Part shown: positions 16,501 to 18,211 of the stretch, one piece after another
How the letters are laid out: every line of letters starts with the position of its first letter
Position numbering within the stretch: the first letter of the stretch is position 1
Origin: an uncultured Acidobacteriota bacterium
GTDB lineage: Bacteria; Acidobacteriota; Thermoanaerobaculia; UBA5066
Length of the DNA: 64,000 nt
Assembly (NCBI GenBank): GCA_963721385.1
Contig: CAVRJB010000019.1
Span: 901,513 to 965,512, forward strand
Direction: 5' to 3'
Translations under genes and position numbers: made by a program
Notes under the pieces: generated by a model
The model's input: the letters and a program-made list of their open reading frames with translations, nothing else
What the model was told of the DNA's origin: nothing
Databases searched by the model: none

Positions 16501-17756
16501 GTCAAGGAGGCCGCTGGCTTGACAGAGCTGACGTCCGAGACCGGATCGAAGCAGCCGCAGCCGGTGGCTCAGCTGGCGTCTCTGGGGCCGAACTGGAACA
16601 GCTCGAGCGACGGGACCGCGATCACGTTCTCGCTCACGGGGTCTGGGCTCAAGCTGCTCAGAGGTATTACCCCCGGTCCCGACTCGATCTCGGACCAGGA
16701 GGGCGGCGATTTCCGGTACATGCACCTGAGCCTCAAGCCGGTCCTTCTGGCTGTCGGTGGGCGGGCCCCGACCGCCGCAACCGCATGGCGGTACTCCGTT
16801 CTACAACCCCGAGATGAACCTCCTCTGCGGAGACGGAACTTCGCACGACGACCGGCACGCCGCTGGTCCTCTACGAGTACATCTGGTTCAACGGGCACCC
16901 GGTGGCGCAGGTGGAGCCGGGCCCCGTGACCCACTGGACCTTCACGGACCACCTCGGGACACCGATCATTCAGACTGATTCAGCTGGCAACACCTACTGG
17001 CGTGCCGAGTACGAGCCTTACGGCCAGGTCTTCGCGCTACGCTCCCCCGACCAGCACCAGCCGCTAAGGCTTCCCGGCCAGGAAGCCGAGCAGCTCAACC
17101 TCGGCCCGAACGGAACCACGGAACGCAGCTACAACATCTTCCGGTGGTACAGGAGCGGGTGGGGGCGGTATACCCAACCGGATCCGGAGCCTTTCGCGTG
17201 GGCAATTTCGCCTGAAGCCTTCGGGTACTCCGGCCAGAGTCCTCTCCGCTTTGTCGATCGAGTCGGGCTCTACTCCGTTGACGGGAGCTGTTCCAATGAA
17301 CCGTTTGGGACCGGCATCGCGGCAGGGATAAAGGACACGTGTGACAGAACGAAGCCGGGCACGAAATGTTCGGAGGCACTAAAGAACGTTAGCGCGGCTC
17401 TCGGCGGCGGGGCGAACCTTCCCGGGTGCTTCAGCGACCTTTGCGGTGGGAAACGCAACGCCCAAATCAGCTGCGACCCGTGTTTTCCCTACTGCGCCGG
17501 AACCATCGCCTCCCTAGGCGGAACAAAGACTGTGGTTGGGCTGGGAAACTCTGGCTGCCCATTCCAGAAAGGCACGGGCTTCGGCGAGACGATCTTCCAC
17601 GAAAGCCTGCATATCTGCGCATTCGGAAACAAGGCGGATGAACCGGACCAGCCGACGATGCGGGCCTCATGGTTCCGGTACTTGGAGAAGGCGTGCTTCA
17701 ATTGGCGCGATCCGAACCTGCCGCCGATCGGGCCGCCTCGCCTCGGACCGCCATGA
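10593..17756 (+). CDS. rhs: Rhs/YD-repeat polymorphic toxin (about 2,380 codons if read through numerous frame breaks), ending in a HExxH toxin domain
   Basis: ATG 10593 with GAGGTGGAG upstream; signal-like N-terminus. [36 protein letters not shown]...[10 protein letters not shown] reached via +1 shifts at ~11235-11238, ~11345 and ~11415. Dozens of YD-type repeats ([49 protein letters not shown]...) in ORF 10593..14705. Pro/Thr-rich tandem repeats 14478-16225 in mixed frames. Rhs core [32 protein letters not shown]...LRLPGQEAE...[19 protein letters not shown]...[11 protein letters not shown] (ORFs 16519.. and 16902..17756). Confidence 0.85.
14478..16225 (+). repeat. Coding tandem repeat array, about 20 copies of an 84-bp unit (28 aa: [28 protein letters not shown]) plus simpler (T/S)PT runs
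   Basis: Exact 84-bp period between the motif gc(g/a)acgatt at 15502, 15586, 15670 and 15754. Earlier units are spaced 82-86 bp, which breaks the frame. A longer internal duplication occurs at ~15897-16060 vs ~16066-16215. Only the Pro/Thr-rich reading ([15 protein letters not shown]) extends the Pro/Thr linker that ends ORF 10593..14705; the alternative frames give Arg- or Asp/His-rich low-complexity products. Confidence 0.9.
16330..17186 (+). repeat. Rhs core-proximal segment duplicated at 18469-19225 (copy A, in the main gene)
   Basis: About 90-95% identity by eye to 18469-19225. Copy A has an extra 88 nt (16363-16450, flanked by agccgg) and two extra G residues (~16796, ~16822) that shift the frame relative to copy B. 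Identity ends at ggatccg (17181-17186 / 19220-19225), just before the divergent toxin tails. Confidence 0.85.
17271..17753 (+). other. C-terminal toxin domain 1 of Rhs: Cys-rich HExxH (zincin-like) metallopeptidase domain
   Basis: 161 aa after the core terminus VDRVGL (17253-17270). 12 cysteines. Single HExxH ([18 protein letters not shown] at 17598-17612). Lower GC than the flanks. Confidence 0.6.
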
Positions 17757-18211
17757 TGAAACTCATGAAACCGATCGTGGCTCTGACCGGAGCTATAGCT
17801 GGACTTCTTTGTCAGCCGGCTGCGCGCGCTTGTCAGTGTGGGGCCATTCCGCCTCCGGCTCAGGCTGCAGAACAATCTGTGGCGGTACTTGCGGGGACCG
17901 TGCTGACCATCCAGGAGACCAGATTCCACGTGCGCATAGGTGACCGTGACGAACCCATTACCGCGAGTCGCGTGGTTGTCAAGCCGCAGCGCGTGTGGAA
18001 AGGCAAGCCAGGGACGTCCATCACGCTTCTGACAGGAGTCACGAACTGTGACTACAGCTTCGAACCAGGAGGCACGTACCTTATCTACGTCGAGAAGAGT
18101 GTCCAGCCCGAGGAACTCACTGCGACAATTTGCAAGCCTACGAAGCGCTACCGCGACGCGGCGGCAGATCGGAAAGAGCTCGGCCCGGGGGAGCTCGTCA
18201 GGAAGCGCTGA
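17753..18211 (+). CDS. Secreted TIMP-like (CxC N-terminus) putative immunity protein / metalloprotease inhibitor
   Basis: ATG 17753 overlaps the toxin stop (ATGA), in the frame of ORF 17669..18211. Signal peptide [26 protein letters not shown], then CQCGAIPPPAQAAEQSVAVLAGTVL...VWKGKPG...TNCDYSFEPGGTYLIYVEK...TATICKP. Mature cysteines fall at 1, 3, 73 and 101. Confidence 0.7.
   Translation: MMKLMKPIVALTGAIAGLLCQPAARACQCGAIPPPAQAAEQSVAVLAGTVLTIQETRFHVRIGDRDEPITASRVVVKPQRVWKGKPGTSITLLTGVTNCDYSFEPGGTYLIYVEKSVQPEELTATICKPTKRYRDAAADRKELGPGELVRKR

Follow-up and report, generated by a model that had tools for sequence, protein, structure and literature searches.

Here we report on an Rhs locus in a 64,000-nt stretch of DNA from an uncultured Acidobacteriota bacterium (contig CAVRJB010000019.1; hereafter the window, all coordinates being relative to its position 1). 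The Rhs C-terminal tail encoded at this locus is a cysteine-rich putative toxin with a single HExxH motif, and it is directly followed by the gene of an exported protein that is almost certainly a homolog of the N-domain of the tissue inhibitors of metalloproteases (TIMPs), with two disulfides and without the C-terminal domain. It is highly probable that this TIMP-like protein is the immunity protein of the toxin. The explanation as a whole, i.e. a metallopeptidase toxin acting in the periplasm together with an immunity protein of TIMP-like action, appears reasonably likely to us.

The open reading frame (ORF) at 16902-17756 (+) encodes the end of an Rhs core and then the 161-aa tail. RHS repeats (PF05593, 11 stretches) and the C-terminal core (PF03527, TIGR03696) precede this variable tail, and the locus is most likely a polymorphic-toxin cassette of the Rhs type. 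Its last part comprises the following features:

16902..17270, + strand: C-terminal Rhs core domain (PF03527 RHS, E 5e-10; TIGR03696 Rhs_assc_core, E 1e-9, ending at residue 123)
17271..17756, + strand: toxin tail of 161 aa (17271-17753) and stop codon, with 11 cysteines (homologs at Rhs C-termini)
17598..17612, + strand: HESLH, predicted zinc-binding/catalytic motif (invariant in six homologs)
17753..17830, + strand: signal peptide of the TIMP-like protein (AxA-Cys junction conserved among homologs)
17831..18211, + strand: mature TIMP-like protein of 126 aa, starting with Cys-Gln-Cys-Gly, and stop codon; predicted immunity protein/inhibitor

A preliminary description of this DNA had placed the end of the Rhs core at 17253-17270, and these codons do encode VDRVGL. 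It had given the tail 161 residues and a single HExxH, both of which stand, and 12 cysteines, where the count is 11. The start of the next gene at ATG 17753, overlapping the toxin stop (ccATGAtg), was recovered as described, and so was the Cys-x-Cys start that would follow cleavage after Ala-Arg-Ala, the only other cysteines of the mature protein being at positions 73 and 101.

The relationship of the downstream protein to TIMPs was established from its predicted structure and from its relatives. The AlphaFold2 model of the mature protein (pLDDT 92, pTM 0.85) has the OB/NTR fold that the preliminary description had anticipated: the 15 best matches in a Foldseek search against the PDB were TIMP-2, TIMP-1, agrin NtA and PCOLCE NTR, the first of them being TIMP-2 (2e2d_C, E 6.8e-5, TM 0.69), and no significant match was obtained in the BFVD viral fold library. 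When aligned by hhalign with human TIMP-2, a profile of 64 relatives gave a probability of 91% (E 1e-6), and the alignment paired C1, C3, C73 and C101 with C1, C3, C72 and C101 of TIMP-2. These four cysteines are the only invariant residues of the 64-member alignment (64/64), so that the Cys-x-Cys pair is conserved throughout at the predicted mature N-terminus, and disulfides Cys1-Cys73 and Cys3-Cys101 are predicted from the equivalence. PF00965 was matched by 17 of the 64 relatives (best E 5e-10). Five relatives, of the P0076 and P0132 type, were tested against the Pfam TIMP cut-off of 23.1 bits and all exceeded it (27.6-30.3 bits); their matches begin at profile positions 1-3, right behind the signal peptides, i.e. 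at the mature N-terminus. One Paenibacillus relative bears the UniRef name 'Tissue inhibitor of metalloprot...'. The window protein itself (17753-18211) had no direct match in Pfam or NCBIfam, and sequence searches of the PDB, with the single sequence or with a 64-sequence profile, returned chance matches only (e.g. EccB3, PLC-epsilon).

The public gene call for the window protein (P0001) is 103 aa long and starts from an internal GTG (Val53); it lacks the signal peptide and the Cys-x-Cys, and the likeness to TIMPs is thereby hidden.

A free amine on Cys1 is what sets inhibitory TIMPs apart from other NTR modules, and the choice between signal peptidases I and II, raised in the preliminary description, was approximated by sequence rules. 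In the window protein, the signal peptide ends in AARA and the mature part starts with CQCG. Among 183 members of the family, 166 have Ala directly before Cys1 (position -1), about 163 have a small residue (A, V, S, G or T) at -3, and only 13 are lipobox-like. By these rules the pattern is that of signal peptidase I, which is predicted to leave Cys1 with a free amine. Residue 2 follows a TIMP-like choice as well (Ser in 98, Gln in 49 and Thr in 9 of the 183). Processing as a lipoprotein by signal peptidase II was considered and rejected on the AxA versus lipobox statistics together with Arg at position -2 of the window protein, a lipobox misfit.

Homologs of the toxin tail were found at the C-termini of Rhs proteins at the loci L001, L002, L007, L010, L011 and L013. 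H110, E111 and H114 of the HExxH motif and several cysteines are invariant in these six homologs, at identities of 25-82%, which bears out the expectation that the motif would be conserved; its context in the homologs reads G-x-T-[ILV]-[FL]-H-E-[STA]-L-H-x-C, followed by G. Aligned by hhalign, the toxin resembles astacin over the zinc helix alone (23 columns, probability 53%), and the value for MMP-3 is 0.6%. A match to the Astacin family of Pfam (E 0.061, under the cut-off) was obtained with one toxin member only. The word-based protein search with the toxin retrieved only the toxin itself, and tblastn against plasmids gave no match. E124, a candidate third zinc ligand, is kept in most but not all homologs with varying spacing; N, Q, T, A or E stands at position +6 counted from the second His, and no downstream Met is conserved. 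Membership in the metzincins was examined and rejected, as the homologs have neither HExxHxxGxxH/D nor a Met-turn, the astacin alignment is confined to the zinc helix and there is none with MMP-3. Judged by its sequence, the tail is a new domain family that falls in no described one; it is likely a zinc hydrolase, and most likely a peptidase. Its 11 cysteines suggest that it folds in an oxidising compartment.

The co-occurrence of the two genes, which the preliminary description had known from the window only, proved to be recurrent. At five independent loci (the window, L001, L002, L007 and L013), a TIMP-like gene comes directly after that of the toxin, L003, L004 and L012 having been grouped with L002 as one. 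An ATGA overlap joins the pair at four of the five (the window, L001, L002 and L013), and at L007 the genes lie 12 nt apart. The identities of toxins and of their TIMP-like partners fall roughly together (Pearson r = 0.71, computed on 10 non-independent pairs), and most members of the close TIMP-like subclade whose flanking DNA is long enough are found behind this toxin. At L013, the TIMP-like protein has a membrane anchor at its C-terminus and would thereby be kept at the periplasmic face.

The mechanism that we infer, from the protease activity of the toxin and the compartment of its action to the immunity role of its partner and zinc chelation by Cys1, would run as follows. The Rhs tail would be a small, disulfide-rich, zinc-dependent hydrolase with HESLH on its active-site helix, acting in the periplasm of the target cell or at the outer face of its inner membrane. 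From the translationally coupled downstream gene, a Sec-exported protein would be made and cut by signal peptidase I after Ala-Arg-Ala, Cys1 thus becoming a free N-terminus, and the mature immunity protein would adopt an OB/NTR fold held together by the disulfides Cys1-Cys73 and Cys3-Cys101. Its N-terminal ridge would enter the active-site cleft, where the alpha-amino and carbonyl groups of Cys1 would bind the catalytic zinc, as TIMPs do with metzincins. This TIMP-style capping of the zinc, suggested by the gene pairing and the conserved N-terminus, has in our estimate a slightly better than even chance of being correct.

Several observations weigh against this explanation. On the side of the TIMP-like protein, the window sequence stays below the PF00965 gathering score, with no Pfam match at E<=1 (as is also the case for its closest relatives P0002, P0003 and P0006), and its four cysteines in 126 residues provide neither the third disulfide of the N-domain nor the C-terminal domain, with three disulfides of its own, that full-length TIMPs have. 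On the side of the toxin, searches of Pfam, NCBIfam and the PDB, by sequence and by profile, gave nothing beyond the sub-threshold match; the homolog alignment revealed neither a Met-turn nor a third zinc ligand that is conserved; and single-sequence AlphaFold2 modelling reached a pLDDT of 39, too low for a fold search. The pairing also has exceptions in both directions. In metagenome-assembled Thermoanaerobaculia, among whose genomes the closest relatives of the toxin lie, two toxin homologs (L010, 4426-4977; L011, 2483-3025) have proteins with 3-4 transmembrane segments encoded behind them, and a six-frame search of the 4-kb flanks of both with a hidden Markov model (HMM) detected no TIMP-like ORF. 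Conversely, at six TIMP-like loci (L005, L006, L008, L009, L014 and L015) no such toxin adjoins, and at the four of these with called neighbours there is no metalloprotease nearby. Finally, the toxin ORF of the window is out of frame with the Rhs body, frame 0 having a stop at 16815.

As the six-frame search brought no hidden TIMP-like ORF to light around the toxins of L010 and L011, a partner of this kind is not obligatory, and the membrane proteins found there mean that one toxin family has two unrelated candidate immunity types. The two kinds of partner, one exported and the other a membrane protein, both point to protection outside the cytoplasm, in accord with the 11 cysteines of the toxin. 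As for the solitary TIMP-like genes, a general rule by which such genes adjoin metalloproteases was not borne out at L008, L009 and L015, and the bulk of the large bacterial TIMP-like family does not lie next to toxins.

The break in frame raises the possibility that this copy is a decayed remnant, i.e. an Rhs pseudogene whose toxin would not be delivered here, whatever the family does elsewhere. The features concerned are:

10593..14705, + strand: Rhs body ORF with YD/RHS repeats (PF05593 RHS_repeat, 11 stretches, E 9e-33; from the ORF list)
14562..16226, + strand: Pro/Thr-coding tandem-repeat zone (Tandem Repeats Finder; stops per frame)
16798..16827, + strand: two insertions of one base each, as compared with the paralogous orphan copy (DNA alignment, 95% identity)

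The Rhs body ORF ends, with a stop at 14703, inside the Pro/Thr-coding repeat, whose Pro/Thr-rich units lie within the Rhs gene (period 84 nt, 15.7 copies at 14843-16169) and across which the reading frame shifts several times. Just upstream of the toxin ORF, 1-nt insertions at about 16798 and 16827, called from an alignment of 16500-17000 with the paralogous copy at 18541-19060 (95% identity), move frame 1 to frame 0, and parts of the Rhs N-terminal region are likewise read out of frame. Ordinary genes of the window are broken too: an AcrB-like gene (26499-29648, - strand) is split near 28960, and an MttB-like ORF (9265-10242, + strand) matches profile positions 200-496 only, the C-terminal 60%. 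Assembly error is therefore as likely a cause as decay. The toxin and TIMP-like ORFs, moreover, are intact and 77-82% identical to their L001 counterparts, and the toxin homologs of L002 and L010 continue in frame from their Rhs bodies. Decay of this copy is a less likely alternative, as the breaks taken together suggest indel errors of the assembly.

Granting the immunity role, the TIMP-like protein could act by ordinary binding to the toxin surface, at an exosite or the substrate face, with the Cys-x-Cys serving as a mere structural staple. The gene pairing backs immunity and is silent on mechanism; the NTR relatives agrin NtA and PCOLCE NTR bind their partners without zinc chelation; and multi-domain members such as P0055 contain internal CPxC copies that lack a free N-terminus. 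A staple, however, has no need of a Cys1 placed right behind an AxA site, as in about 90% of the 183 members, a feature that defines inhibitory TIMPs, and the residues found at position 2 (Ser, Thr or Gln) match those of TIMPs. We consider surface binding unlikely and favour zinc capping by Cys1.

It is rather improbable that the tail is not a peptidase, with the HExxH metal serving another chemistry (on a cell-wall or lipid-linked substrate) or with a structural HExxH in a disulfide-knotted binding toxin. The lack of any zincin family or structure match beyond the 23-residue helix, the lack of a Met-turn and of a clear third ligand, and the odd number of cysteines, which leaves one free so that the invariant C96 or C116 might bind metal, would fit such a toxin, and the membrane-protein partners at L010 and L011 hint at action on membranes. 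On the other hand, the H, E and H residues stay invariant even where identity drops to 25%, the motif that contains them is close to the zinc helix of astacin, and the only known biochemical activity of the partner family is metalloprotease inhibition, in keeping with a peptidase.

That the TIMP-like protein is no immunity protein at all, being instead a general periplasmic protease inhibitor, a protease substrate or activator (cf. Listeria Tim) or a folding or export helper of the toxin, is very unlikely: members of the wider family do stand alone, away from toxins and proteases, two toxin homologs have a membrane protein in its place, and the TIMP-like lipoprotein of Listeria is cleaved by its partner metzincin and was not shown to inhibit it (PMC8235301), but five independent pairs, four of them with the 4-nt ATGA overlap, reproduce the standard toxin-immunity layout, which a second cassette in the window repeats, and the close subclade is tiny and sits mostly behind this toxin where flanks suffice.

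The extent of the TIMP-like family was assessed at two levels of sensitivity. The word-based protein search yielded only six relatives of the TIMP-like protein, and the full-length ones among them all have the A-CQCG junction, WKG, TATICKPTK and LGPG. In an exhaustive profile search, the seven closest sequences were used as profile against 1.8 billion representatives (clusters at 50% identity); 7,849 clusters were retrieved at E<=1e-3, of which 1,621 reached E<=1e-10, and the close subclade consists of 7 clusters at E<=1e-30. The bacterial proteins P0076 and P0132, of the type that exceeds the Pfam TIMP cut-off, were found by this same profile at E about 1e-17 to 1e-18. Exactly four cysteines occur in the domain of 145 of 171 relatives. 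There is an even chance, in our judgement, that the TIMP inhibitor design is a large and ancient bacterial family (at least 7,849 clusters in several phyla) rather than an animal invention, that one small branch of it was recruited as immunity to a new Cys-rich Rhs metallopeptidase toxin, and that animal TIMPs have a common origin with protease inhibitors of the bacterial envelope or descend from them.

The domain also takes other forms within the family. A C-terminal hydrophobic segment is present in 63 of 171 sampled members, and the variants include three tandem copies (P0055), long C-terminal fusions (P0056; WD40-like in P0128) and C-terminal membrane anchors; such forms were seen in P0055, P0056, P0128 and P0016-P0019.

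We then compared the pair with known systems. With the animal TIMPs (PF00965, MEROPS I35; 2e2d, 1br9, 3ma2), inhibitors that serve in the control of tissue remodelling, the window protein shares secretion, a mature Cys-x-Cys N-terminus, the OB/NTR fold, equivalent disulfides (C1-C72 and C3-C101 in TIMP-2, C1-C73 and C3-C101 predicted here), a WKG/FKG turn, the ...C...YL[IV]...C order and a metalloprotease partner, which is predicted here. Unlike them, it is bacterial and consists of the N-domain only (126 aa), without the C13-C126 disulfide of TIMP-2 and the C-terminal domain; its residue 2 is Gln, its identity to TIMP-2 is about 19-20% and it falls under the Pfam threshold. Its partner is a toxin tail and not an MMP or ADAM, and inhibition of that partner is deduced here.

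Among interbacterial toxins, a close parallel is the Tpe/Tpi pair VgrG2b/PA0261. The C-terminal metallopeptidase of VgrG2b from P. aeruginosa is neutralised by PA0261, a periplasmic, DsbA-dependent immunity protein (PMC6899460). Both systems thus have an HExxH toxin, periplasmic in VgrG2b and presumably so here, and an exported disulfide-containing immunity protein encoded alongside; VgrG2b, however, rides the VgrG spike of a type VI secretion system (T6SS), whereas the window toxin is an Rhs protein, and PA0261, which we compared by its description, is not described as TIMP-like in that paper. Rhs polymorphic toxins with zincin-like tails have been catalogued as Tox-MPTase1-5, HopH1 and ALF-MPTase (Zhang et al. 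2012, PMC3482391), and the table of these authors gives no immunity family for Tox-MPTase1-5. The Rhs locus of the window has the same arrangement of RHS repeats, core and variable C-terminal HExxH toxin, but its tail matches none of those Pfam families, is Cys-rich and has an exported partner.

In Listeria monocytogenes, a metzincin gene (Mtz) is followed by the gene of a protein with a TIMP-like fold (Tim), and the authors of that study state that they came across no previous report of TIMP-like proteins in bacteria (PMC8235301). Tim has an LTAC lipobox and is thus a lipoprotein, its likeness to TIMPs comes from structure prediction only, it is cleaved by the protease and it stands outside any toxin-immunity context. 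In the window protein, by contrast, Cys1 lies behind a predicted signal peptidase I site and homology to TIMPs is detectable in the sequence. A further likeness is offered by the serralysin inhibitors (Pseudomonas alkaline protease inhibitor, MEROPS I38), bacterial periplasmic metzincin inhibitors that insert their N-terminus into the active site. In the alkaline protease inhibitor, the N-terminal residue contacts the zinc. This inhibitor has been said to engage its metzincin in TIMP fashion (PMC8235301); the serralysin inhibitors differ from the window protein, being beta-barrels unrelated to OB/NTR, without Cys-x-Cys and without link to polymorphic toxins. The literature searched for TIMP-type immunity proteins or bacterial TIMPs held nothing beyond Listeria Tim, in agreement with the statement of the preliminary description that no TIMP-type immunity family was known to it.

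Periplasmic metallopeptidase effectors with exported immunity proteins and Rhs toxins with zincin tails are thus already known. If the proposed mechanism is true, the TIMP-like protein would be the first polymorphic-toxin immunity protein with a predictable atomic mechanism, one taken from a well-studied inhibitor class. The very large family of bacterial TIMP homologs, of which we found no discussion in the literature searched, bears on the origin of animal TIMPs and NTR modules, and small two-disulfide N-TIMP scaffolds are starting points for the engineering of metalloprotease inhibitors. The toxin defines a new domain with a putative envelope target.

Further features are found downstream of the first cassette:

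18269..18460, + strand: conserved element behind the first cassette (no Rfam family)
18560..19741, + strand: second, orphan Rhs C-terminal module with another, Gly/Cys-rich tail (PF03527, TIGR03696)
19738..20118, + strand: 126-aa protein with two predicted transmembrane segments (hydropathy scan); presumed second immunity protein
20140..20315, + strand: second copy of the post-cassette element

The two Rhs modules of the window have cores that are 95% identical and unrelated tails. The second cassette repeats the layout of the first, i.e. toxin, ATGA overlap and small protein. Its tail is Gly- and Cys-rich (...GVSGGAGFGGSKGRG...FGIGISVFDWGAGF...) and has no Pfam match, and the pair may consist of a toxin that acts on membranes and an immunity protein that resides in the membrane. 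No T6SS genes were found among the neighbours scanned around the Rhs locus; a related Rhs protein, at L014, has a clear N-terminal signal peptide.

The same element of about 180 nt lies behind each cassette, the two copies being roughly 80% identical. It begins with copies of GATTTTGGSGTCA (three in the first element), followed by the exact AT-rich core GGTCTATATTATCTATTATAGTT and, in the first copy, by about another 130 nt; such a core is unusual for a window of 69% GC. The element is otherwise absent from the window and from the other loci compared, and has no family in Rfam; it may serve as terminator, promoter or recombination site. A gene at 20703-21131 (- strand), a short way downstream of the Rhs cassettes, encodes a PIN-domain protein (PF01850, E 2e-16), which may belong to a toxin-antitoxin pair of the VapBC type.

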